64,000 bases of DNA from a virus, in IMG/VR virus record IMGVR_UViG_3300032770_000005, positions 64,001 to 128,000 of that record; one strand, given 5' to 3'. Positions within the stretch are counted from its first letter, which is position 1. Each line of letters starts with the position of its first letter. The notes beneath the pieces are model-generated. The model was given only the letters and a program-made list of their open reading frames with translations. It was not told the origin of the DNA and did not search any database. Of the stretch, positions 7,113 to 60,762 are shown one piece after another. Both the position numbers and the translations under genes were made by a program.

Positions 7113-7699
7113 GCTTCACGGAGAACTGGTACTCGGAGCAGCAGCTGGTCGAACTGCAACGCGCGGTGCGTCGCGTGCGAGCGCTCAGCGGCGAGATCAT
7201 CGAGCTGGGCTGCTGGGAGGGCAAGAGCACCTGCGCGCTTGCCGTGGCCGCCGAGCCCGAGCCCGTGATCGCGGTCGACAACTGGACCGGGAGCCACTCC
7301 GAAGGCGAGGGTCATCCGACCGTGCAGATCGCCAAGCAGCGCGACGTTCTGGCCGTGTTCAGGGAGAACGTGGCGATGTACACGCGTGGCAACGTCGTGA
7401 TCGTGAGGTTGGACCACGACGCGTTCATCGGGTCGCTGGGTTTCCCGTCGCTGGAGTTTCCCGTGGCGAACGCGGTGGTGAAGTTCGTGCACATCGACGG
7501 CGCGCATGACTATGCGTCGGTGCGCCGGCAGATCCTGGGCCTGAAGCCGCACATGGTCCCGGGCGGCATCATCTGCGGGGACGACTTCCTCACGGCGAGC
7601 GCGCAGAGGCACGACCTGGGCGGCGGCGTCGAGCGCGCTGTCCGCGAGTGCTGCCCGAACTTCGAGCTGCACGGAAACCTCTGGCTCTGGGTGCGGTGA
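7109..7699 (+). CDS. class I SAM-dependent methyltransferase
   Basis: IELGCWEGKST, HIDGAHDYASV, GGIICGDD. Confidence 0.85.
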   Translation: MSFTENWYSEQQLVELQRAVRRVRALSGEIIELGCWEGKSTCALAVAAEPEPVIAVDNWTGSHSEGEGHPTVQIAKQRDVLAVFRENVAMYTRGNVVIVRLDHDAFIGSLGFPSLEFPVANAVVKFVHIDGAHDYASVRRQILGLKPHMVPGGIICGDDFLTASAQRHDLGGGVERAVRECCPNFELHGNLWLWVR

Positions 7700-8343
7700 T
7701 GCGTGTCGTGCTCGGCGTGCCTACGCTCAATCGCTACGACCTGCTGGCCGACCTGGTCGCGTCCGCACGAGCGAGTTCGCGGCCGCCGGATGAGATCGTG
7801 ATCGTCGACAACGGCGGCACGCTCGCGATGGAGCAGGTGACCATCATGCGGCCGGGTCGCAACGTCGGCGTGGGGCCTGCGTGGAACATGATCGCGCGAG
7901 CCGCCTTCCACGGGCGTGACGACAGGCTGCTGCTCGTGGGCGACGACGTGCGGCTTGCCACGGATGCGATCGAGGTACTGCTGCGCACGCACGAGCAGAC
8001 CGGCGCGGACATGGTCTATCCGGGACATCTAGCGGGGAACATCTTCTCCTGCTTCATGTGCACGCCGATGCTCTTCGGTCGGGTCGGCTACTTCGACGAG
8101 GACTTCGCGCCGGCGTACTTCGAGGACAACGACTTCCACTACCGCATGCGCCTGTGCGGCGTGAAAGACGCGGCGGCGCCATGCGTCGTGGCACACCAGG
8201 GGAGCGCGACGTTGGCTCGGTTCTCAGCTGCGCAGCTGGAAGAGCATCACCGTAACTTCGAGCGACTGCGGCAGCTGTACGTGCGCAAGTGGGGCGGCGT
8301 CCCGGGCTCCGAGGCGTACATCACGCCCTACAACAAGGGTTGA
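7699..8343 (+). CDS. GT2-family glycosyltransferase
   Basis: IVIVDNG, NVGVGPAWN, GYFDEDFAPAYFEDND. Confidence 0.85.
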   Translation: MRVVLGVPTLNRYDLLADLVASARASSRPPDEIVIVDNGGTLAMEQVTIMRPGRNVGVGPAWNMIARAAFHGRDDRLLLVGDDVRLATDAIEVLLRTHEQTGADMVYPGHLAGNIFSCFMCTPMLFGRVGYFDEDFAPAYFEDNDFHYRMRLCGVKDAAAPCVVAHQGSATLARFSAAQLEEHHRNFERLRQLYVRKWGGVPGSEAYITPYNKG

Positions 8344-8354
8344 AGGAGATCGCG

Positions 8355-8618
8355 ATGAAGAAGGTCAAGAAGAGTCAGAAGGTCACGACGAAGGACGAGG
8401 GGGACGAGAACCCGGTGTTCGAGTACGCAGCGACCGAAGACGACCGCGCTATGCTGCTGAAGTCAGACGCGTTGCCGAGCGGCACCGCGGCAGAGCGGGC
8501 CTGGACGAGTTTCGCGTGCGCGGCGATCGCCGGAAGGTTGACCTTCAACGCTCTGGGCGCTGCCGAAGCGGCGGACAGCATGCTTGCCGAATGGCGGAGG
8601 CGATGGGGGCCGGAGTGA
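8355..8618 (+). CDS. hypothetical protein
   Basis: AAGGAG RBS; AAEAADSMLAE C-terminus typical of small phage proteins. Confidence 0.7.
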   Translation: MKKVKKSQKVTTKDEGDENPVFEYAATEDDRAMLLKSDALPSGTAAERAWTSFACAAIAGRLTFNALGAAEAADSMLAEWRRRWGPE

Positions 8619-8623
8619 GCGAC

Positions 8624-8937
8624 CACGGCGCGCCGGCGCGAGGGCTTCGTACTCGCAACTCGGAGGAGGATAGTGCGAAGCCAGCGCGGGGGCCGAGTGC
8701 CTGCGAGCGAGCGCGTCCGGTCTCGTCGTCGCGAGGCCTGCGCGGGGGCCTGATGCCTGCGACCGGTCCATCGGAGTCTCCTTTTGCTGTTGTGCGAGGT
8801 CGCAGGGCCAGCGCGGGGGCCTTGCGCTCGCGACACAATGAACCGGACGCTCGTCCGGTAGCCAGCGCAGAGGCTTCATGTCTGCGACCGCATCGCTGGT
8901 AGGCGAAAGGCCAGCGCAGGGGCCGAATGCCTGCGAC
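8624..8937 (+). CRISPR. compact degenerate CRISPR-like mini-array, 6 repeats
   Basis: Repeats at 8624, 8672, 8728, 8799, 8853, 8902; spacers 12, 20, 35, 18, 13 bp. Confidence 0.8.
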
Positions 8938-8963
8938 GCGATCGCCTCGCATGAAGGCTGGCT

Positions 8964-9374
8964 TCAGACGCGGTACGGCGCAGTCCAGACGGCGTAGCAG
9001 CCGTACCCCACGCCGGCTCCGATTAGTCCGCCGGCGATCGGGTTCTTGGTCACGGCGCCGATGATCCCAGCGACCAGGCCGCCCACGCCAGAGGCGAGGC
9101 TGCCGGCATTGATCAAGCTCTGCGTCTGCGTCGTCCACTGCTGGTTGAGCGCACTGTCGGAGCACGCGATGCTCGTCAGCAGCCCCTGGCCGAGCCCGCG
9201 GTACGGGTCGCGCCCGAACAGATAGATGTCGGGCTCGCCGGTCACGTCCGATCCGTACTGGATGTAGCCCGGCATCGGCAGCCCAGGCATGCGCGTACGG
9301 CCCGGCGGCAGCGTCGCGAAGTTGACCTGGCCAGGCACCACGACCTGTCCAAGCGCACGGCGGCGGTAGCTCAT
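8964..9374 (-). CDS. putative virion membrane protein
   Basis: Two Gly-rich TM segments; RALGQ and RGLGQ motifs; leaderless promoter. Confidence 0.7.
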   Translation of the reverse strand: MSYRRRALGQVVVPGQVNFATLPPGRTRMPGLPMPGYIQYGSDVTGEPDIYLFGRDPYRGLGQGLLTSIACSDSALNQQWTTQTQSLINAGSLASGVGGLVAGIIGAVTKNPIAGGLIGAGVGYGCYAVWTAPYRV

Positions 9375-9420
9375 GCAGCGATGGTAGCAGGGGCATGGCG
9401 CTCAGTGTAGGATGGCGGTC

Positions 9421-10182
9421 ATGCTCCAGGGGTACGGCCAAGATCTGCATTCGGGCGCGGGCACGGAATGGGACGAGCTGACCAAGCGCGTCCACTGGCC
9501 GCTCGGCGCCGTGATGACGTCCGCCTACGCCGAGCCGCTTCGAGCGCTGCGGCTGCACGACCCTGTCGAGCAGCGACTCGGGTACGGCGGCTTCGGTGCC
9601 GCGTACCGCGTGCGGCTACGCGGCATCGATAGCGTGCTGAAGCTGACGCGAGACCCGTACGAGGTCATCGCGGCCTGGAACCTGAAGCGCAAGCACACCA
9701 AGCGCGTGGTCCCGGTGTACGAGGTCTGGTCGCTCCCGAAGCTCCAGCAGTACGACCACTGGGCGTCGTGGTGGGTGGTCCATCGTGGCTACCTCGCGCC
9801 GCTGTCGAAGGCCGACCTCGACCTCACCGAGCTGATCTTCGACCTCTGGGACGACGACGACCTCGACCTGAGCGTGCCGCGGCACGGCGAGGTCGGGCGC
9901 AGCATGCGCTCGAAGTGGAAGATCGTGCTCGATCAGGAGACAGATCTGAACGGCCAGGAGAAGGCACGCCTGCTGCTGCTGCTCGACCAGATCGCATTCG
10001 GCATCCGCGAGATGGGCCAGCACGGCATCGACTGGACGGACATCATGCCCGACAACCTGCTCCGGGCTCCCGACGGCGGCATGATGATCGCGGACTTCGG
10101 GTTCGGTCGCCCCAAGAAGGACTCGGACGTCAACCCGCCAGAGCTGACCGTGCAGCTCGCTCGCGAGTACGCTGGTGGCTGA
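9421..10182 (+). CDS. protein kinase-like protein
   Basis: LGYGGFGAAY, VLKLT, TDIMPDNLL, IADFG. Start 9412 or 9421. Confidence 0.85.
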   Translation: MLQGYGQDLHSGAGTEWDELTKRVHWPLGAVMTSAYAEPLRALRLHDPVEQRLGYGGFGAAYRVRLRGIDSVLKLTRDPYEVIAAWNLKRKHTKRVVPVYEVWSLPKLQQYDHWASWWVVHRGYLAPLSKADLDLTELIFDLWDDDDLDLSVPRHGEVGRSMRSKWKIVLDQETDLNGQEKARLLLLLDQIAFGIREMGQHGIDWTDIMPDNLLRAPDGGMMIADFGFGRPKKDSDVNPPELTVQLAREYAGG

Positions 10183-10598
10183 TGCGCTGGGGCGCAGCCG
10201 GCGCTGGGCTACTGCTGGTCGCTTCTGACACGCGCCGAGTTCTGCTGCTGCTGAGGAGCGCGGGCGTCACGGAGCCAGGCACGTGGGGCGTGCCAGGCGG
10301 CCGTCTCGAACCCGGCGAGGCTCCGCTCGATGGCGCCATGCGCGAGGCGGCCGAGGAGATCGACTTCCGCGGCCCGGTCGCGATCGTCGGCAGCTACGTG
10401 TACCGCGAGAGCGGCTTCGAGTTCACGACCTTCGTCGGGATGGTGGAATCGGAGTTCCGACCGCGCCTGAACTGGGAGAGCGATGACGCGCGGTGGTTCA
10501 TGCCGGACGAGTGGCCGGACAATCTTCACTTCGGCGTGCGGCACGTGCTTCAGACCATGCTTATCCGGTTGTCGCCCACGCCAAGTAGACAGAGATAG
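10182..10598 (+). CDS. NUDIX hydrolase, C-terminus displaced by an insertion
   Basis: Nudix box GGRLEPGEAPLDGAMREAAEEI. Confidence 0.9.
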   Translation: MRWGAAGAGLLLVASDTRRVLLLLRSAGVTEPGTWGVPGGRLEPGEAPLDGAMREAAEEIDFRGPVAIVGSYVYRESGFEFTTFVGMVESEFRPRLNWESDDARWFMPDEWPDNLHFGVRHVLQTMLIRLSPTPSRQR

Positions 10599-11040
10599 CG
10601 ATGTTCTGTAGGATTCTTTCGCAAGGGAGCGTTTCCATGAGGAAAAAAACCAAGCGAACGACACGGAACACAGCGCAGGTGTGGGATTACGATGATATCC
10701 GCGACCCGACAGACAAGACGTACATGCTGACATTCCAACCGTACTTGGAAACGCCAGACGGTCAGAAGGCGGAACTGACGATCGGCTACCTACCGCGTCG
10801 TCGTGGCTACGGCTACGGAAGGTGGGAAGAGTTCTTCCTCACTCTGCCAGAAGCGAGGCGTCGCATGGACTTTCTTGCATCCGCAAGGGCGATCGAGGAC
10901 GCCGAGATCCGAAAGGAAATCCCAGGCGGCGGGATGATGACCACACTCGTGGACGCATGGCGCGACGAAGAGGGCGACGAAGACTGAGACATTCGCCGGG
11001 GCTTGGAGCGCTGTTTTTGGGCAAAAACCGGATGAGCATG
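10556..11040. mobile_element. non-autonomous cargo cassette, copy 2 (485 bp, 15-bp TIR, 8-bp TSD)
   Basis: CATGCTTATCCGGTT / AACCGGATGAGCATG ends; CTTCAGAC duplicated at 10548-10555 and 11041-11048. Confidence 0.85.
10637..10987 (+). CDS. hypothetical cargo protein with basic N-terminus
   Basis: MRKKTKRTTRN...; lower GC than the flanks. Confidence 0.7.
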   Translation: MRKKTKRTTRNTAQVWDYDDIRDPTDKTYMLTFQPYLETPDGQKAELTIGYLPRRRGYGYGRWEEFFLTLPEARRRMDFLASARAIEDAEIRKEIPGGGMMTTLVDAWRDEEGDED

Positions 11041-11183
11041 CTTCAGACGAGCCGGCCGGCCGCTGCTGCGCCGGTCCGCGCCTGCGTGTGGTGCAGCGGC
11101 ACCGGCACGATCCCCGCGACGCGGATGATCTGTCGGACGTGCGGGGGGGACTGGCTTCGGCGTCTGAAGAGCAGCTGCGCGAG

Positions 11184-13244
11184 TCAGATTAGGGACAGCT
11201 GACCGGCGGGCGCGGCGACCCTTTTGCCGACCTCTTCGGTTGGCGTCACGCCGAACTCGGGCAGGTAGGGCGAGACGGTCACCTCGTCGACCGTCGCGTC
11301 ATCGGCGTAGGCGTGCGAGTAGAACCACAGCTCTTGCGCGGCGCGAGTCACCGCGACGTACAGCAGCCTGCGCTCGTCGGTCGGATTGCCCCAGGGCACG
11401 GGCCAGATCTTGCTCGTCATGCCGGGCATGTACACGACCTGCCACTCGGCGCCCTTCACGCGGTGCACGGTGCTGATGGTCACCGCGTTGCGTGAGGCCG
11501 CCGCACGACGCTGCGCGACGTGTAGCTCGTCGACGGTGTCGAGCAGCTCGGCGAGCGTGTTGAACGCGCTCATGAAGTCGACGACGCGGTCGAAGTTCAT
11601 GCCGGCGTCGACGTCGGGCTCGGCCTCGCTGGCACTCGCGATCCAGCGCCCGAAGTCGGTCACCTTGCAGATCTTCTCGAAGAGCTGCCGCGGCGTGGCG
11701 TTCTTCGCGAGCGACGTGCGCCAGTCGCGCACCTTCCACATGAAGTCGTGAGCGTTGCCCGTGTACCGGCGATCGTGGACGACGGACAGCCCCTCCATCA
11801 GGTCGATCCAGTCGAAGCCGTTGGTGGTCTCCTGAGGAGCAGCCTTCGTCACGGCGTCGGTGAACACGCGTCCGAGATAGCGCGTGGGCGACAGGATGGC
11901 CTCGGTGAAGTCGCTGTGGTCTGCCCGGTTCGCGATCACGCGCATGTACGCGAGGACGACCTTGGTCGCCTTGGCCGCGAAGAAGCTAGCGCCGGCAGCG
12001 ACGCGGCACGGGATCTTGGCCTTGAGCAGCTCCAGCTCGATCGGAGCGCTCTGAGCGTTGACGCGAAGGAGGATCGCCTGATCGCGCCACTCGATGCCGG
12101 ACTCGTGGTGCGCGTTGATGTTGCGCGCCAGATCGACCGCCTCGGCCGACGGAGCGTCATGCACGCGATAGCCCAGGAAGCCGACGTCCGATCGTGTGCC
12201 GATCATCTTCATCGGCAGGCGTGCGCTGAGCGGGATGCCCGCGAGCGCGATGTTGCCGCTCTCGATGATCTTGCTGGCGCTCCGGAAGTTGTGCTCCATG
12301 TACACGACGCGGACGTTCGGGCGCTTGGCGAACGCGAGGAAGTGCTCGGGGCGAGCGCCGCGAAAGCTGTAGATGCACTGGCCTGGGTCGCCGACGATCG
12401 TCAGGTTGCGCGTGCGTCGAGCGAGCGCGTCCACGATGCGCCACTGCGCTTCGCAGAGGTCCTGCGCCTCGTCGACGACGACGTAGTCGAACTGCTCCTG
12501 CCAGCGAGCGAGCAGGCCAGGATCGCGGTCGAACGCGCGCACCGACTCGACGAGCAGATCGTCGAAGCCCACGAACCGCGCCCGCGTCGCGTTGTCGTGG
12601 AGCAGCACGCCCTGCGTGTCGCGTACCGTCTCGGCAGCGAAGAAGATGGCGATCAGGTCGTCGGGATGCTGCGCGCAGTCACGCTTCGCTCGGATCACCG
12701 CCTCCGCCGCGTCGAGCAGCTGCGGCGCGGTGAGTCCGAGCAGCCGCTGGTCGACGACCTCGTCGGTCACGAGCATGTCGTTCTTCACTCGCGACGAGAA
12801 GCGTCGGACCACGTCGAGGTCGAAGGTCCCCTGCCGGATGCCGAGCGTGTTGACCGCCTCGCGGATCGCGCGGTTCTGGAGGCTGCCGTTCTTGTCGAGC
12901 GTGAACCCCCTGGCACCCGACGTATCGGACCAGATCGAATGCGCGAGCGAATGGAGCGTGCGCGCGACGGTGACGTCGCCCTTGAGGCCGAGACGCTTCT
13001 TGAGCTTGCGGTTGAGCTGCGTGGCCGCGTCGACGTTGAAGGCCAAGAGGCAGATCTTGTCCAGCGGGACGCCGCTCTGCGCGAGCCGCGCCGTGCGCTC
13101 GATGAGCGTCGTGGACTTGCCGCTGCCGGCGACGGCGCCGACGAGCATGAGCCCGAGGTTGTGCTCGATCACGACCTGCTGCGCCGGCGTGAACGTGGGT
13201 CCCGCCGCCGGCGCCTCGGCCTTCTTCTTCCGCTTCGCACTCAC
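11184..13244 (-). CDS. uvrD: UvrD/Rep/PcrA-family SF1 helicase
   Basis: AVAGSGKST, VVVDEAQD, VGDPGQCIYSFRGA, NFRS, TVHRVKGAEW, ERRLLYVAVTRA. Confidence 0.95.
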   Translation of the reverse strand: MSAKRKKKAEAPAAGPTFTPAQQVVIEHNLGLMLVGAVAGSGKSTTLIERTARLAQSGVPLDKICLLAFNVDAATQLNRKLKKRLGLKGDVTVARTLHSLAHSIWSDTSGARGFTLDKNGSLQNRAIREAVNTLGIRQGTFDLDVVRRFSSRVKNDMLVTDEVVDQRLLGLTAPQLLDAAEAVIRAKRDCAQHPDDLIAIFFAAETVRDTQGVLLHDNATRARFVGFDDLLVESVRAFDRDPGLLARWQEQFDYVVVDEAQDLCEAQWRIVDALARRTRNLTIVGDPGQCIYSFRGARPEHFLAFAKRPNVRVVYMEHNFRSASKIIESGNIALAGIPLSARLPMKMIGTRSDVGFLGYRVHDAPSAEAVDLARNINAHHESGIEWRDQAILLRVNAQSAPIELELLKAKIPCRVAAGASFFAAKATKVVLAYMRVIANRADHSDFTEAILSPTRYLGRVFTDAVTKAAPQETTNGFDWIDLMEGLSVVHDRRYTGNAHDFMWKVRDWRTSLAKNATPRQLFEKICKVTDFGRWIASASEAEPDVDAGMNFDRVVDFMSAFNTLAELLDTVDELHVAQRRAAASRNAVTISTVHRVKGAEWQVVYMPGMTSKIWPVPWGNPTDERRLLYVAVTRAAQELWFYSHAYADDATVDEVTVSPYLPEFGVTPTEEVGKRVAAPAGQLSLI

Positions 13245-13924
13245 TCGCGTAGGGCTGGCCTCACGTACCCGGTGTTGGCCGTGAAGCCGTCGCAGTGAAC
13301 CTCGATGAGGCCCACAGCGTCTGCGTGTCGGTGATCGATGCGGCCGCCCCAGTCGGTGATCGGCTCGTCGCACAGGTAGAGCGCGGTGGGACCGGGCGCG
13401 AAGTCGTCGAGCGTCATGCGTGCGATCCCGCTCGCGAGACGCCATGCGTGCGTCCAGGCCCGCACGGCGTGATGCCACGGCACGGACCCGCGCCAGTGGA
13501 GCGGCGTCGCCGAGAACGGCGCGTCACCGACGTACATGGTCCACGCGTTGATGTCGCCGGGGGACGGCTCCATGAGGCGCCCGTGGGAGTAGGCGAGCGC
13601 GAACGCGAGGTAGCGCTGTGCGAACGACAGCGCGGTGCCTGCCTGACGCATGCGCTCGGCCCCGCGCAGCAGCACCTGATGCAGCAGGTAGCAGTCGTCG
13701 CCCCAGAGGACCCCGTGGTCTCGCTGCTGCACCCATCGGTCGACGGTCCCGTCCTCGTCCTCGTCGAGGCCGTAGGGCAGAGACGCCTCGTGCACGCACA
13801 GCGACGTGAGCACGCGTACGGGCGTCCATGGCTGACCACCCGGCGATCGCGTGGGCAGCTGAGCAGCCGCGTGGCCGCACATGAGCCCGAGAACGAGAAC
13901 AGCTACGATGATGTTGGTACGCAT
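13241..13924 (-). CDS. secreted protein, possibly SleB-like cell wall hydrolase
   Basis: Signal peptide; LTSLCVHEA resembles the catalytic Glu motif only weakly. Confidence 0.45.
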   Translation of the reverse strand: MRTNIIVAVLVLGLMCGHAAAQLPTRSPGGQPWTPVRVLTSLCVHEASLPYGLDEDEDGTVDRWVQQRDHGVLWGDDCYLLHQVLLRGAERMRQAGTALSFAQRYLAFALAYSHGRLMEPSPGDINAWTMYVGDAPFSATPLHWRGSVPWHHAVRAWTHAWRLASGIARMTLDDFAPGPTALYLCDEPITDWGGRIDHRHADAVGLIEVHCDGFTANTGYVRPALRE

Positions 13925-27480: not shown

Positions 27481-27705
27481 GAGGCCTGCGCGGGGGCATG
27501 GTGCTCGCGACGCGCTCGCGACGAACCACGAGAGCCGGCGACGCGCCCATCCCGAAGCCAGCGCGGGGGCTTCGTGCCTGCGACTCGTGACGGAAGTTTC
27601 TCGTGGCTGACCTGTTGCATTCTGTCGAAAGGCCAGCGCGGAGGCTCTCATGTCCGCGACATGCAGTTCCACGACTGAGCCAGCGCGAGGGCTTGTGCTC
27701 GCGAC
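27476..27705 (+). CRISPR. degenerate CRISPR-like mini-array, 4 repeats
   Basis: Repeats ending at 27511, 27584, 27660, 27705. Confidence 0.8.
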
Positions 27706-36591: not shown

Positions 36592-37110
36592 CTATGCGCG
36601 GTAGCGGCGTGTGCCGCCTTGGAGCAGCTGCTGCAACGCAGGATCGTCCGAACGGGCGATGATCTTGCGCTCACGCGCATCCCGGTTGCGCTTCATGCGA
36701 CCGCAGATACCGGCCCGGAGATCGCCCACCGCCTCACGCGCACGGACCGTCGCCTCTGACGTGATCACGACCTCGTCGGCCGGCGGTCGGTTCGCCATCT
36801 TCGTGAAGTCGTCGACATCGACCAGCGTGAGGATGCACGGCGAGAACGCATACGAGACCACCCAGGTGCGCGCATGGTTCCTCAGTGGCAACGCATTCGC
36901 GTCGCCGTAGACGGAGCCCTGGCCCTCGTGCGGCCCAAGCGCCTCGGCGAGCCAGGCCATCTCGGCGACGACCTGCTCTTCGCCACACGCCCGAAGGCTC
37001 ACGAGCACGATGGTGCCGTGCTCGAAGAGCCACCACCGTACATTGGCCGCGCGACTCGGTGCGGCGCTGAAGACCTCCTGCGCGATCGAGATCGCCTTGC
37101 TGCTGTCCAT
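36592..37110 (-). CDS. hypothetical protein
   Basis: GAGGAGA RBS; WWLFEHGTIV. Confidence 0.7.
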   Translation of the reverse strand: MDSSKAISIAQEVFSAAPSRAANVRWWLFEHGTIVLVSLRACGEEQVVAEMAWLAEALGPHEGQGSVYGDANALPLRNHARTWVVSYAFSPCILTLVDVDDFTKMANRPPADEVVITSEATVRAREAVGDLRAGICGRMKRNRDARERKIIARSDDPALQQLLQGGTRRYRA

Positions 37111-39760: not shown

Positions 39761-40022
39761 TTGCGCGAGCCAGCGCGAGGGCTTGGTGCTCGCGACAACG
39801 ATCAGGTCGCACAAAAGCCCTCGCCGGGGCTTCGTGCCGGCGACGTCGAGGAGGTTGGCGCGTTGATCGCGAAGGGCCGCTCAGTGCGAGGCCAGCGCGG
39901 GGGCCGTTGTGCCTGCGACGATTCCCTCGGCGCGCTCTCGGCGTCAAGCCAACGCAGGGGCCTGGTGCCTGCGACGCGCGGCGTCTCCGCGAGGGCCTGT
40001 GCGAGGGCTTTGTGCTCGCGAC
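39761..40022 (+). CRISPR. compact CRISPR-like mini-array, 5 repeats
   Basis: Repeats ending at 39796, 39844, 39919, 39975, 40022. Confidence 0.75.
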
Positions 40023-41823: not shown

Positions 41824-43209
41824 GTCGCGGGCATTCGGCCCCCACGCTGGCCTGACGGCGACGGCGATGACCCACTGCTGCGCCATGTCGCAGGCACGAT
41901 GCCCCCACGCTGGCCCTGCAACGCGCACAACGCGCAGTACAAGCCGATGGCGCTCGGCGTGGCTCGGCGTGTCGCGAGCACCAAGCCCCCGCGCTGGCCT
42001 CGCCTGCATGACGATCTGCACCGAGTGCTTCTGCGTCCATCCGTCGCGGGCACTCGGCCCCCGCGCTGGCCTCGTAACAAGGGCTCTAGCTGACCGGTCA
42101 GCAGGACGACGCGCAGTCGCAGGCACGATGCCCCCGCGCTGGCTCTTCGAGACGCCGTCTCGGCCTTCCGGTCGCAGGCACCAGGCCCCTGCGCAGGCCT
42201 CGCAACAACTACACGCGAACCGAGCGCCTTCGCATATGCGTCGCGAGCACAAGCCCTCGCGCTGGCTCAGTCGTGGAACTGCATGTCGCGGACACCAGAG
42301 CCTCCGCGCAGGCTCGATCGTGGTCGCTCGGCTTGAGCGCGAGCCGGGCCTTCTCGCTCACTTCGCGAGCACCAAGCCCCCGCGCTGGCTTCGCGACTAC
42401 GTGGATGCGGCCGCTTCCCCTTGGTCCAGCGCCAGGTGCAGGCACGAGGCCCCTGCGCAGGCCTCGCGACGTCCTCGTCATGAACACCAATCTCGCGGAC
42501 ACGCAGTCGCAGGCACACGGCCCCCGCGCTGGCCTCGCGACGCATATGATCGGCGCTGGTACGCGTGCGGCGACCTCCAGTCGCAGGCACTCGGCCCCCG
42601 CGCTGGCCTCGCGACGCTCCGGCGCGCCGCGTGAGCATCACGACGTCGCGCTTCATGTCGCGAGCACTCGGCCCCCGCGCTGGCCTCGCGACCGGCAGAC
42701 CCGGGCGATGGTAGTGCTGCACGATGACGTCGCAGGCACACGGCCCCCGCGCTGGCCCCGCGACCAATGAACGGTGCCTTGTGGGCGGCCACGGGTCCCA
42801 GAGTCGCAGGCACACGGCCCCCGCGCTGGCCTCGCGACCCGCACAGCAGCGCGTTGAACGCGCCGCCCGCGAGAAAGTCGCAGGCACACGGCCCCCGCGC
42901 TGGCCTCGCGACGGCACTGCTCCGGCGCATGGGCTTCTGCGAGGAGCGCGGTCGCAGGCACACGGCCCCCGCGCTGGCCTCGCGACCGCGTCGCTGGCCA
43001 CCCGACACGCATGTATGTGCCTCCCGGTCGCAGGCACACGGCCCCCGCGCTGGCCTCGCGACGCACGTCGTGCACGGTCGGCGTTGTCGTAGTTCTCCTG
43101 TCGCAGGCACCAGGCCCCCGCGCCGGCCTCGCGACTAGAGGATCTGCGTGCGAGGAACGTTGTCGAAGAAGGAGTCGCAGGCACACGGCCCCCGCGCTGG
43201 CCTCGCGAC
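41824..43209 (-). CRISPR. main CRISPR array, 20 repeats of 36 bp
   Basis: Ten near-identical repeats at 42506, 42580, 42657, 42729, 42803, 42877, 42951, 43027, 43100, 43174 with 36-41 bp unique spacers; ten degenerate repeats from 41824 to 42435. Strand inferred from the decay gradient. Confidence 0.95.
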
Positions 43210-56943: not shown

Positions 56944-59403
56944 TCAGGCCTGCATCCCGGAGAACAGGGTGCGACCGAAGATGCCGCCCGCGAACCCGCG
57001 CCCCTCGTCGGTGGCGTAGTTCCGCTTCTGGACCTTCGTGTCGCGGTGCATCACGCCCGTGACGTCGGTGGCGATGTCCGCCGGCGTCTCGGTCGAGACG
57101 AACGGCGGCTGCGGGAGCGCCGGCGGCATGCCCGGCGGTCCGACCGGCGCCGGCGTCACCGCGCCCGTCACGACGGGCTGGATGGGCGGCGCCGCCGCAG
57201 CGGCCGCAGCCGTCGCGTCGTCACCGAAGCCCGCCGCAGCGTAGTACGTGCCCAGACCCGCCGCGGCCTCGTAGGGCCCACCGGCCGTCGCCTCCATGAC
57301 GTCCATCAGGCCGTCGATCGAGGAGTGGTCGGCGGGATCGATGCCCTCCTGGTAGCCCGCGGCCGCGTAGAACGTGCCCATGCCGCTGAGCGGCTGCTGC
57401 ACGTACTCGCCGACGCCGCTGAGCGGCTGCTGCACGTACTCGCCCATGCTCGGGTCCTGGACGTACGCGCCGACGCCGCTGAGCGGCTGCTGCACGTACT
57501 CGCCCATCCCCGCCGTGGCGTAGTAGGTCCCGAGGTACGGCGCCGCCTGCGTGCCGCGGAGGAGCCGCGCCATGAAGGCCGCACCCTCGCCGGCGACGAT
57601 CGCCGTGAGGTTCTGCCGGAGCATCGGGAACCGCGCCGCCGCGACGATGGTCGCCAGCGCGACCGCCAGGTTCGTGACCGACTTCGTCACGATGGCCTGA
57701 TCGGGCGTCTGACCCGCATCGAGCACGTTGCGCACCTGGTCGATGTTGGCGACCGCGTTCGCCGCACCGTTCGACGCCATGAGGCCACCGATCGCCCAGA
57801 CCGACGGCATGGCGACGTCGTTCATGAGATCGATCTGCGTCCCCATGATGCTGAGGTTCCGGCGCAGGTGGCGACGACGACGGTGGTTCGACCGCATGCT
57901 GTGGCGCTTGCTGTGGCGCTTGCTGTTGCGGCGCATCCGCCGATGATGTCGGTTGCGCACGACGATGTACTTGTTGGCGCTCACCCGCCGGCTCGACCGA
58001 CGCGACCGACGACGCTTGTTCCGACGCATGCCCATGGAGGTCCTCCTGTTCCTTCTGTTCGACGCGAGCGACTTGCGGCGACGCGAGCGCGCGTAGCCCT
58101 CGCGAAGCGCTCGCTCGTGAGCGCGCTTCGCTGCACCTCCGAACGTGAAGCGGCGCGTGTAGCTCCGCTCCGAGACGAACCCCGGCACGTACGTCGCGTA
58201 GCCGCGACGACGCGAGCGAGGTCCGAACTGGACCAGCTGGATGCGCTGGCCCGCTGCACGACCGCCACGCTGGGACGTGCGGCCGAGCAGGTTCGCTGCC
58301 ATGCGGATCCCCGCCGCGCCGTGCGCGTGCCGGGTCGTCGCGTGGATGTACGGCGGGTTGAAGAGCCGGCCCGTGTAGAACGGCGAGGCCGAGTAGCCCT
58401 TCACGCGCTTGTACCCGCGCACCTTCGTCGTGTAGTGGAACTTGCCCTGCTTCTTGCTGATCCGACCACGACGCTGCATGCCACGCGACACCGCTCGCGC
58501 GTGCGACTCCGCGCTCGCCGCGGCCGCCGCCGCCTTCGAGGCCTCGCGCTTCGCAGCGCTGGCTGCCTTCGAGGCAGCTCTCTTCGAGGTGGCCTTCGCC
58601 TTCTTGGCCTTCGAGACGGCCTTCTTGGCGTCCTTCTTCGCCTTCGAGGCCGCCTTGCGCGCCGACTTCGCCGCGGCCTTGGCCGCCTTCGGCGTCGAGG
58701 CGTGCTTCGCCTTCGATGCCGCCTTCTTCGCCCTGGACGCCGCCTTCTTCGACGCCCGAGCCGCGCTCTGCGCGCCCTTCGCCGTGACGCGACCACCCTT
58801 CACGGTGGGAGTGCTGTGGCGGCGGTGGTGCGAGCCGTGGCTCCGGCTGAGCCCGCGCGAGATGCGCCGGCGCTGGCGCGGCGTCAGCGACCCCATCGCC
58901 ATCGCGATCGGCGTCCCCGACACGCGACGGCTACGCCGCTTGCGGCTGTGGCTGCTGCCCGTGTCGACGGCGCGCGAAGCGGCCTTGATCGCTGCGCGAT
59001 CTTCCTCGGACATGTTCCGACGCATCGCGCGCTTGAGCGATTGCACGTTGTAGCCCATCGGTCGTCTCCCTCGTGCGTTTCTGCTGAGCACCTGTTTGCG
59101 GCTGAGCGGATGGGACAGCAGCGTCCCGTACTCGTCGACGGGGTAGAGCCGACCATGGCCCAACTCCGAGGCGTGCTTCTCGGCCCACCGCTTCGCACCG
59201 CGCACCGTTCGGTACGCGGGGCTCAGATGGTGATGGCTGCGCCCACGACCGCTGATCCACTGGAACGGGTTCCGACTCGGCGCACGACCGGGATTGATCA
59301 CGGTCATGTGCGTGACGCCGCCGCCCACGTTCGGCTCCATGCCGGGGCTGCGCTCGTACTTCCGAGCGACGTTCCGTGTCGTCTTGCGGTAGATCAGGGC
59401 CAC
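56944..59403 (-). CDS. large basic core/membrane protein with histone-H1-like region
   Basis: KKAASKAKK tract, many RxN motifs, hydrophobic helices, GEYVQQPLSG repeats, C-terminal GRGFAGGIFGRTLFSG. Confidence 0.8.
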   Translation of the reverse strand: MALIYRKTTRNVARKYERSPGMEPNVGGGVTHMTVINPGRAPSRNPFQWISGRGRSHHHLSPAYRTVRGAKRWAEKHASELGHGRLYPVDEYGTLLSHPLSRKQVLSRNARGRRPMGYNVQSLKRAMRRNMSEEDRAAIKAASRAVDTGSSHSRKRRSRRVSGTPIAMAMGSLTPRQRRRISRGLSRSHGSHHRRHSTPTVKGGRVTAKGAQSAARASKKAASRAKKAASKAKHASTPKAAKAAAKSARKAASKAKKDAKKAVSKAKKAKATSKRAASKAASAAKREASKAAAAAASAESHARAVSRGMQRRGRISKKQGKFHYTTKVRGYKRVKGYSASPFYTGRLFNPPYIHATTRHAHGAAGIRMAANLLGRTSQRGGRAAGQRIQLVQFGPRSRRRGYATYVPGFVSERSYTRRFTFGGAAKRAHERALREGYARSRRRKSLASNRRNRRTSMGMRRNKRRRSRRSSRRVSANKYIVVRNRHHRRMRRNSKRHSKRHSMRSNHRRRRHLRRNLSIMGTQIDLMNDVAMPSVWAIGGLMASNGAANAVANIDQVRNVLDAGQTPDQAIVTKSVTNLAVALATIVAAARFPMLRQNLTAIVAGEGAAFMARLLRGTQAAPYLGTYYATAGMGEYVQQPLSGVGAYVQDPSMGEYVQQPLSGVGEYVQQPLSGMGTFYAAAGYQEGIDPADHSSIDGLMDVMEATAGGPYEAAAGLGTYYAAAGFGDDATAAAAAAAPPIQPVVTGAVTPAPVGPPGMPPALPQPPFVSTETPADIATDVTGVMHRDTKVQKRNYATDEGRGFAGGIFGRTLFSGMQA
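57376..57508 (-). repeat. coding tandem repeat G(E/A)YVQQPLSG(V/M)
   Basis: ACGCCGCTGAGCGGCTGCTGCACGTACTCGCC and variants, three copies plus one partial. Confidence 0.85.
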
Positions 59404-59514
59404 TTGGACGCAACTCGCCTGCTCGACCCCTGAGAGCAGGCGAGGCGCAAGGCCCCAGGTCTTCGGAGAGAACGCTACACGCGAGAGATCATCGGCGCAA
59501 GAAGAATCGCACGC

Positions 59515-59703
59515 TCACGCGGGCGCCGGTTTCTTCTCGGTCGTCGCATCCTGCGCAAGTTCGCGCAGCTCCTTGGGAATCGCGAACCCGCGGCTCGACT
59601 GCCGCGCCTTGCGTACTTCTCGCTGGAACTCGCCGACCGCCTGCTTCATCTGCTGCACGGCTGTCGGTTCGTCGTCTCGCTTGCGGTCTTCCTCGTCGCT
59701 CAT
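59515..59703 (-). CDS. small hypothetical protein
   Basis: GGAGG RBS; coupled ORF. Confidence 0.6.
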   Translation of the reverse strand: MSDEEDRKRDDEPTAVQQMKQAVGEFQREVRKARQSSRGFAIPKELRELAQDATTEKKPAPA

Positions 59704-60059
59704 CTTGGCCTCCCCGGCGGAGATCGATCTCCGCGTGAGATCATCTCGAACCGCGCGTCCATCGCGCTGACCTTCGACTCCAAGCTGATCACCTTCTCGC
59801 GCAGGTCGACGAGGATCTCCATGATCTGCTCGTCCACCTGCCGCGTGGCGCCCGTCTCCCTGAGCGCCTGCGAGAACTCCTTCGTCGACTCCACGACCGT
59901 CGCCGTCACGGCTCGCGCGTCGTCCACGCGCGACTGCTGCACCTGGTTGAGGCGCTCGTATAGGCCGCGCGTGAAGACCGCGAGCGGCACGAGGATGAGC
60001 AGAAAGACGGCGCCGAATGCGCCCCACTGCTGCGTGATCTGCTCGGTGCCCGGCGGCAT
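59700..60059 (-). CDS. single-TM coiled-coil protein, holin-like
   Basis: QWGAFGAVFLLILVPLAVF followed by a coiled coil. Confidence 0.55.
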   Translation of the reverse strand: MPPGTEQITQQWGAFGAVFLLILVPLAVFTRGLYERLNQVQQSRVDDARAVTATVVESTKEFSQALRETGATRQVDEQIMEILVDLREKVISLESKVSAMDARFEMISRGDRSPPGRPR

Positions 60060-60060
60060 G

Positions 60061-60762
60061 TCAGCCGTCGATCCCGTCCTTGAGCACGCGGAGCCGCCCA
60101 CCCTGGATGAAGCCCAAGAAGCCGACGTCACCGTTGCGCAGCTTGTGCGGCGCGTAGATGGCGAGCATGTGTCCGTCCGGCGCGGTGAGGAGCCACGCGT
60201 TGCGTGGGTTCACCGTGTGCCGCAGATCGTCGCTCGGATCGTCATCATCGTCGCGCCGCACGAACCAACCGAGGCACTTGCCGAGGCGCGCCCACGCCTT
60301 CGGGTACTTCAGCTTGGTCGTGCCGAAGCGCGCTCGATCTTCCGGCTCCAGGTCGGCGTTGGAGTAGAAGCGCGTGCCGGCCCCGGGCTCGTACTCCAGC
60401 TCCTCGCTCTTGCCGTGCAGGTGCTTGTAGTCGACGTCCTGCCCGTCCTCGTACCACTTGTCGCAGCGGTACATGACGCTCACGCAATCGCCGACCGGCA
60501 CGACGAGCTTCGGAGGCTCGTGGTCGATCTCGACGATGTCGATGGGCTGCTTCTGATGGAACAGCCGGTAGCGTGCGAGCGCGGCGTCGAGGTCGCGCCC
60601 CTCGGAACCGGCGATGCGCATCGGATCTTCGATGGAGCGCCCGTAGCGCTGCCCCATCGCACCCTCGGAGCCTCGCGGCGCCATCTCGCTCGACGGCGCG
60701 TTCGGGCGTAGGCGCCGGCTTGCTCTGCGGCTGCTGCTGCCACGACTGCTGCGCCTGGTCAT
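60061..60762 (-). CDS. Arg/Ser-rich leader (RLRPN) plus unknown domain
   Basis: YRLFH, VMYRCDKW, YKHLHG, IQGG.L.V...GIDG. Confidence 0.75.
   Translation of the reverse strand: MTRRSSRGSSSRRASRRLRPNAPSSEMAPRGSEGAMGQRYGRSIEDPMRIAGSEGRDLDAALARYRLFHQKQPIDIVEIDHEPPKLVVPVGDCVSVMYRCDKWYEDGQDVDYKHLHGKSEELEYEPGAGTRFYSNADLEPEDRARFGTTKLKYPKAWARLGKCLGWFVRRDDDDDPSDDLRHTVNPRNAWLLTAPDGHMLAIYAPHKLRNGDVGFLGFIQGGRLRVLKDGIDG

Follow-up and report, generated by a model that had tools for sequence, protein, structure and literature searches.

Whether the short, degenerate CRISPR arrays scattered over a virus genome are selected, functional guides or decaying remnants is the question raised by positions 8624–8937 of the window, i.e., of the whole 64,000-nt stretch of DNA analyzed here, which corresponds to bases 64001–128000 of a single 152,857-bp contig (a virus record of 68% G+C that is rated 100% complete; hereafter G000). 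The 36-nt CRISPR repeat of the contig is present here in six copies. Their core-to-core gaps of 20, 28, 43, 26, and 21 nt, with segments of 18–35 nt in between, do not follow the regular period of type V-M arrays (a 36-nt repeat plus spacers of ~36–39 nt), and it is in this irregular spacing that the focal array is a variant. Several of its units are also changed at otherwise conserved positions. Since the array begins no more than 12 nt past the stop codon of the ORF at 8289..8618, read-through is the likely source of the pre-crRNA; a scan of window positions 7600–9600 revealed no promoter- or terminator-like site, and Rfam has no entry for the focal region. Comparison with orthologous loci was ruled out, as the flanking genes have no homolog in the four related viruses described below (G001–G004), and the viruses that come closest in their upstream gene (50 and 44% identity) are devoid of these repeats.

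The repeat motif is found at 44 places in the window, where shuffled sequence would yield 0.57, and scanning with a covariance model, for which 79 ungapped copies served as input, recovered 88 copies on the contig, arranged in ~14 clusters on both strands (Table 1). Two of these clusters represent ordinary young arrays, in which the 36-nt repeats are near-identical and the spacers measure 36–40 nt; the remaining ones, including the focal array, contain diverged repeats at irregular spacing.

Table 1. Features of the focal array and of other repeat clusters (window positions unless marked as contig; columns are those of the 36-nt repeat; gaps are core-to-core).
Feature	Position	Strand	Description
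Upstream ORF, co-oriented	8289..8618 (stop codon 8616–8618)	+	GC3 0.81; crude GC3-based gene call
Handle 1 (columns 7–36)	8630..8659	+	Most degenerate unit; 5' repeat part lost; columns 28 and 34 changed; pseudoknot 5/6 pairs; covariance model 34.3 bits
Guide-sized segment 1	8660..8677	+	18 nt; gap 20
Handle 2	8678..8707	+	5' 6 nt unlike repeat; pseudoknot 6/6; last base C>G
Segment 2	8708..8727	+	20 nt, followed by intact 5' repeat part (8728–8735); gap 28 = 20 + 8
Unit 3, full 36-nt repeat	8728..8763	+	Pseudoknot 6/6; stem 5/5; conserved positions unchanged; 52.8 bits
Segment 3	8764..8798	+	35 nt; near-canonical spacer
Unit 4, full 36-nt repeat, other 5' variant	8799..8834	+	Pseudoknot 6/6; T>C at column 27
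Segment 4	8835..8858	+	24 nt; gap 26
Handle 5	8859..8888	+	A-U replaces G-C (compensatory) at pair 19–29; pseudoknot 6/6 despite two changes
Segment 5	8889..8907	+	19 nt; gap 21
Handle 6, last unit	8908..8937	+	Pseudoknot 6/6; 49.8 bits; guide would begin at 8938
Downstream ORF, convergent	8964..9374	-	GC3 0.88; array occupies space between two gene ends
Compact pair	27624..27705	+	Gap 18; core-guide-core copy at 42240–42321 (-)
Mini-array	39761..40022	+	Gaps 20, 46, 28, 19
Young canonical array, same repeat	42362–43209	-	Near-identical 36-nt repeats; gaps 43–49; reference state
Young array	contig 59234–60206		Begins 20 nt past the 651-aa Cas12m gene

The original prediction had postulated a type V-like effector, and two Cas12m genes are indeed present on the contig outside the window, encoding proteins of 651 aa (contig 57259–59214) and 586 aa (contig 8790–10550). 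These paralogues share 46% identity, match the Cas12m structure PDB 23vw over their full length (E 1e-67 and 1e-66) and match Cas12m2 and GoCas12m as well; the nearer gene is ~13 kb away from the focal array. An exact-pattern scan of IMG/VR identified the four further viruses with this repeat family (G001–G004), three of which possess Cas12m genes whose products are 34–39% identical to the G000 proteins. In G000, G001, G003, G004, and an Actinomadura genome cas12m adjoins an array of the family, and in G000, G001, G003, and Actinomadura the arrays directly follow the gene in handle-then-spacer direction. Profile searches for Cas1 and Cas2 in the five virus records (G000–G004) gave no match; control genomes were matched. 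By effector, scaffold layout, orientation, and the absent adaptation module the array belongs to type V-M CRISPR-Cas12m. The 586-aa Cas12m gene has its own version of the repeat with identical stem and pseudoknot layout (contig 10553–11290), of which one copy lies right past the stop codon and two past a small gene that occupies a spacer position.

One of the four viruses, the IMG/VR provirus record G002, contains ~27 handles and no effector inside its annotated borders. The record falls within contig NZ_BDDE01000028.1 from Actinomadura sp. K4S16 NBRC 110471, where an intact 849-aa Cas12m-family gene (contig 92272–94821; E 4e-49 to GoCas12m and 7e-46 to Cas12m2) is located ~5 kb past the annotated provirus end. 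Directly behind this gene follow ~29 units with a period of 46–48 nt throughout. The guide segments of the Actinomadura arrays have a G+C content of 0.61 as compared to 0.72 in the provirus. Far from being a remnant, the compact form makes up the main array of the Actinomadura lineage, right beside cas. The 849-aa homolog is ~250 aa longer than characterized Cas12m, with an unmatched middle that parts two matched blocks.

Decay of the dispersed repeats is strongly one-sided. Among 53 dispersed copies, columns 1–6 contain 0.14–0.44 bits at a mean consensus fraction of 0.52, which is near background, whereas columns 9–36 stand at 0.87, with columns 7–8 intermediate; variation within columns 9–36 is restricted to 12, 17, 18, 23–25, 30, and 31. 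The original prediction that the first 8 or so nt vary freely while a 3' core is kept was correct in the asymmetry but put its extent too high, as only ~6 nt are free. Dozens of units lack the 5' part and none lacks the 3' part. Quarter-by-quarter repeat scans detected no 3'-truncated units, no orphan 5' pieces near any array, and only two 3' fragments; orphan 5' pieces numbered 4 against 10.8 expected from shuffles. Searching as such does not explain the asymmetry, given that orphan pieces do not exceed the shuffle level. Agreement of the 5' 8-mer with its locus consensus amounts to 7.0 of 8 positions for the long-gap class and 3.6 of 8 for the short-gap class (see below). In compact units, only two bases preceding the core are conserved (a purine in 98%, then mostly a pyrimidine), which indicates a handle of ~30 nt and a free segment of 16–20 nt.

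These borders can be compared with the known crRNA. The Cas12m2 complex has a 36-nt scaffold in which positions -36 to -30 are disordered, followed by a stem and a pseudoknot of -22..-17 with -8..-3, and a guide-target duplex of 17 bp; the crRNA template in the paper's supplement places GCC at -28 and GAC at -3..-1 (type V-M: PMC10442227; PMC11013384). GoCas12m carries ~30 nt of repeat in a crRNA of ~50 nt, which is cut inside the repeat and needs no tracrRNA (PMC10442227; PMC11013384). The GCC and GAC of the contig repeat occupy the same positions as those of the Cas12m2 crRNA, and its pseudoknot falls onto -8..-3. The retained 3' 28–30 nt correspond to the structured part of the Cas12m crRNA scaffold, and the region free to decay is the very region that is disordered in the solved Cas12m2 complex.

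The pseudoknot, formed by columns 14–19 with 29–34, is paired in 98.6% of cells. Across 70 distinct copies picked by sequence alone, pair 17–31 is GC in 30, GU in 23, AU in 16, CG in one, and unpaired in none (Fisher p 2e-5), and pair 18–30 is GC in 42, AU in 15, and GU in 11 (Fisher p 2e-7); the observed values were reached by 0 of 500 shuffles. Two-sided changes in all six pseudoknot pairs were found among 150 distinct copies from other loci, with pair 19–29 being GC in 83, AU in 48, and CG in seven of them. As the scanner used for these loci had demanded at least five of the six pairs, selection was redone on non-pseudoknot positions only: the 123 distinct cores matching all 12 of these positions form six pairs in 101 cases, five in 20, and four in two. 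The hairpin stem shows less. Its column 8–23 pair (G-C 33, A-T 9, G-T 11, A-C 7) co-varies weakly at best (Fisher p 0.03), a 7-bp stem extension as seen at 27549 and 40517 is not a general feature, with columns 6–25 unpaired in 46 of 70 copies, and the co-variation of a whole-repeat hairpin (columns 1–8 with 29–36) does not exceed that of shuffles. Hence, the compensatory changes and frequent co-variation originally ascribed to stem variants are real, but reside mainly in the pseudoknot; likewise the loop purine pair and the CCT/CTC choice vary as noted, yet not as separate alternatives, because the two pair with each other. What a unit keeps is a short GCC/GGC stem and a 6-bp pseudoknot between loop and 3' arm, with the GAC end next to the guide. 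Selection on the handle is well supported by this co-variation, by decay of columns 1–6 alone, and by the absence of 3'-truncated copies. One unit (window 39809–39844) has C-G at pair 17–31, a state of the handle that is typical of Actinomadura and not of this virus.

A second regularity concerns spacing. A two-core pattern retrieved 28 metagenome loci when gaps of 5–35 nt were allowed and 13 genome loci with gaps of 17–47 nt, and pooling yielded 315 distinct neighboring repeat pairs from 34 sources. The gaps fall into two classes, 43–49 nt (149 pairs) and 18–22 nt (69 pairs, namely 13, 15, 24, 9, and 8 at 18, 19, 20, 21, and 22 nt, respectively), with 17 pairs at 23–26 nt, 20 at 27–30 nt, 29 at 31–42 nt, and 19 at 50–70 nt. 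The left edge at 18 nt is sharp: only seven pairs have gaps of 13–17 nt (none at 13–14, two at 15, two at 16, three at 17) and five have gaps of 12 nt or less. Such a lower edge is a genuine feature that is seen again in loci unrelated to each other. It had been anticipated as a floor of 18–21 nt from the gaps starting at 8660, 8889, 27661, 39797, and 39976, which measure 20, 21, 18, 20, and 19 nt, and gaps below 15 nt proved to be as rare elsewhere in the genome as foreseen. On the whole G000 contig gaps range from 18 to ~50 nt, with exceptions of just 2 and 11 nt outside the window (contig 36967 and 37062). The description of the mini-arrays as trimmed to mature-guide size applies less well to the focal array, where only three of the five gaps (20, 21, and 26 nt) are near the floor; this array is partly, not fully, compacted.

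The shortest gaps belong to spacer-less doublets (2, 8, 8, 9, and 11 nt). Those at 8–11 nt are full repeats that abut almost without a spacer and constitute a separate kind of event. The two examples in G000 are near-abutting cores that have lost their spacer (contig 36939–36996 and 37034–37099), and doublets of this kind with gaps of 8, 8, 9, and 11 nt also occur in metagenome relatives.

Between the two classes, about half of the units with gaps of 27–30 nt consist of a 20-nt spacer and an intact 5' tag, i.e., they retain the 5' 8-mer, and segment 2 of the focal array with its gap of 28 nt belongs here. In G000, gaps become shorter the more the core departs from the consensus of the young arrays (rho -0.42, p 0.001), and longer with increasing identity of columns 1–6 (rho 0.54, p 9e-6). 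The related viruses differ in how far the short class prevails: in G001, a regular array closes with two units at 20-nt gaps, in G003 gaps of 44–48 and of 18–22 nt occur side by side, and G002 has gaps of almost exclusively 17–22 nt, the compact class being narrow in Actinomadura (mostly 18–20 nt). The regular arrays of two metagenome loci on related contigs (L069 and L085) have just one spacer in common, which shows that spacers still turn over in some lineages of this repeat family. Recombination relocates units as well. The compact pair and its copy (Table 1) share a ~75-nt core-guide-core block, in which the guide and the second core are identical and the first core differs at three positions, with unrelated flanks. 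The block spans exactly from the start of the first to the end of the second core.

If the segments between handles serve as guides, their targets might be recognizable. However, no protospacer was found in the virus itself, the four related viruses, the Actinomadura genome, or cultured phages, the array regions did not match cultured phages, and the three long spacers searched as exact 24-mers had no match in IMG/VR. Self-targeting matches of 17–18 out of 18 were absent from the virus except for one internal duplicate, and cross-targeting among the five viruses yielded two 17/18 matches versus ~0.8 expected. The segments match G000 and the Actinomadura genome no better than expected by chance, and outside the arrays the Actinomadura array has only chance-level matches in its own 9.6-Mb genome. 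An excess of low-score self-matches over mononucleotide shuffles was traced to repeat-derived and duplicated segments. The guide segments are as dissimilar to one another as shuffled sequence, without conserved positions but the last two, and since they are no more alike than this, tandem duplication is not supported as the main source of compact arrays; alike pairs were limited to one in Actinomadura and one in G003. Likewise, no spacer was encountered in both a long and a trimmed version when such cases were sought. The original prediction of selected, functional guides is therefore upheld for selection on the handle, and, as no protospacer was found, we only infer that the short inter-handle segments act as guides. 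A helicase gene (window 11184–13478, minus strand) has six weak partial matches to guides from different arrays (15–19 bases over 15–22 nt), more than its share of the genome, none of which would satisfy a 17-bp duplex.

As the most probable explanation, we propose reductive evolution, in the course of which adaptation-less type V-M arrays have shrunk toward the mature-crRNA unit. According to this model, an array would be transcribed via read-through from the upstream gene, and the 651-aa Cas12m would bind each scaffold and cut the transcript just upstream of it. The resulting crRNAs of ~46–60 nt, with a guide of 16–20 nt or more, would direct DNA binding at targets. Without spacer acquisition, the full repeat and the full spacer length, both related to adaptation, would be unconstrained, so that deletions could strip the unconstrained parts until the length of the mature crRNA (~30 + 17–20 nt) is reached, and the need of Cas12m for a guide-target duplex of ~17 bp would halt further loss. 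Decay or deletion has affected the 5' 6 nt of the repeat and the distal spacer half. The trend of gap with divergence, the intermediate class, and the absent adaptation genes fit such a stepwise loss of parts dispensable for interference. Several observations count against it: no guide, long or short, had a target in the sequences searched, a few units have only 13–16 nt of spacer in front of an intact 5' repeat part, the focal array is compacted only in part, the narrow Actinomadura class could point to a ruler-like origin rather than many independent deletions, and the spacer-less doublets (2, 8, 8, 9, and 11 nt) represent some outright erosion.

Alternatively, though in our opinion improbable, the handles might be Cas12m binding or processing sites in non-guiding use, for instance to cut and stabilize the virus' own polycistronic messages, to titrate Cas12m, or as a decoy for host Cas12m in the manner of an RNA anti-CRISPR or crRNA-like regulator. 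In that case, the floor of 18 nt would correspond to the room that two neighboring protein-bound handles require, and the few units that have an intact 5' repeat part after just 13–16 nt of spacer indeed imply that the floor may reflect handle spacing rather than guide length. The position of arrays at gene ends and between genes, the failure to find any guide with a target, and the ~27 handles of G002 with no effector within its annotated borders are also in line with this possibility. However, RNA anti-CRISPRs and crRNA-like regulators are recognized by a virus without effector mimicking the host repeat, whereas this virus has two cognate effectors of its own, and the Actinomadura cas12m, directly followed by a compact array, is found 5 kb past the annotated end of the provirus. 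Moreover, the segments are unique, unrelated to each other, and within a narrow length range equal to known guide length, none of which decoys or punctuation would need.

Neutral erosion, with mini-arrays being decaying remnants whose core is kept only through youth or recombination between arrays, is already disfavored and we regard it as quite unlikely. It would account for the spacer-less doublets and the two 3' fragments, the core-guide-core block copied between two arrays, and the several units changed at otherwise conserved positions, but not for randomized columns 1–6 and spacers next to columns 9–36 at 87% consensus with compensated pseudoknot changes. Nor does it explain why 3'-truncated units are missing next to dozens of 5'-decayed ones, why the same repeat core is retained across viruses whose Cas12m proteins are only 34–39% identical, or why the gaps form two peaks, the lower one sharply bounded, instead of showing a smooth decay. 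We give least credence to the idea that compact units (the 18–22-nt class) are not trimmed from long ones but written at size by a ruler-type process independent of Cas1-Cas2, such as copying of mature crRNA-length units into DNA or an integrase inserting ~19-nt spacers with a 28–30-nt repeat, which would be these virus-borne Cas12m systems' own way of fixing guides and would suit a short class as discrete and about as narrow as the canonical one and the uniformly compact Actinomadura arrays, because G000 gaps fill the 18–43 range and shorten as repeats diverge, an intermediate class exists (20-nt spacer plus intact 5' 8-mer), and repeats within compact arrays differ, unlike freshly duplicated ones.

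The arrays also have to be viewed against described systems. Type V-M (Cas12m2, GoCas12m, MsCas12m; PMC10442227; PMC11013384) has the same effector family and 36-nt repeat, the same 3' 28–30 nt with a stem and a pseudoknot ending in GAC, and likewise no adaptation genes; it is tracrRNA-free, with processing inside the repeat, a mature crRNA of ~50–60 nt, and a guide-target duplex of ~17 bp. The described arrays are, however, ordinary ones beside the cas gene in bacterial genomes, whereas here they are scattered over a virus genome, their repeats are diverged, and many units lack the 5' repeat part and half the spacer. The Cas12m locus of myxophage MV-1 (bioRxiv 10.64898/2026.09.14.751636) is also virus-borne, with an adjacent array, without cas1, cas2, and cas4, and without an identified protospacer, but consists of one conventional eight-spacer array found by standard tools, and dispersed or compact arrays are not mentioned. 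Viral mini-arrays and crRNA-like regulators (PMC6858448; PMC10120712; bioRxiv 10.1101/2024.10.29.618823) are comparable as short arrays or single repeats in viruses, some of them with degenerate repeats and shortened spacers. They rely on a host effector and use one or two spacers against a rival virus or a cas promoter, in contrast to the own effector, the dozens of units, and the whole unit cut to a common length observed here.

Full-text searches of the literature retrieved no description of arrays trimmed to crRNA length, and virus-borne Cas12m only once, in a 2026 preprint with a single ordinary array. The homing crRNA of type V-K CRISPR-associated transposons (CAST) combines a non-cutting Cas12 with a shortened atypical repeat and a ~17-nt spacer that is fixed and not acquired. 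It is a single guide tied to the transposon attachment site, unlike the long arrays found here.

If the compact units work, Cas12m would have been minimized naturally to a 30-nt handle plus a ~17–20-nt guide, packed head to tail, and neither the 5' tag of the repeat nor the distal spacer half would be required. Such arrays would tell apart which portions of a CRISPR repeat are needed for interference and which for adaptation, and could be a natural template for dense multiplex guide arrays of a small, non-cutting programmable DNA binder. The presence of the pattern in the cultured Actinomadura sp. K4S16 NBRC 110471 makes it directly testable. Common array finders with a minimum spacer length of ~25 nt will miss or truncate compact arrays; a virome study, for example, ran MinCED with a 25-nt minimum (PMC12607003). 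Virus-borne guide repertoires are probably under-counted. Both ends of the G000 contig (1–428 and 152413–152857) consist of tandem 24-nt repeats of the same family, which may be terminal repeats, with the genome being linear, or may result from an overlap in the assembly.
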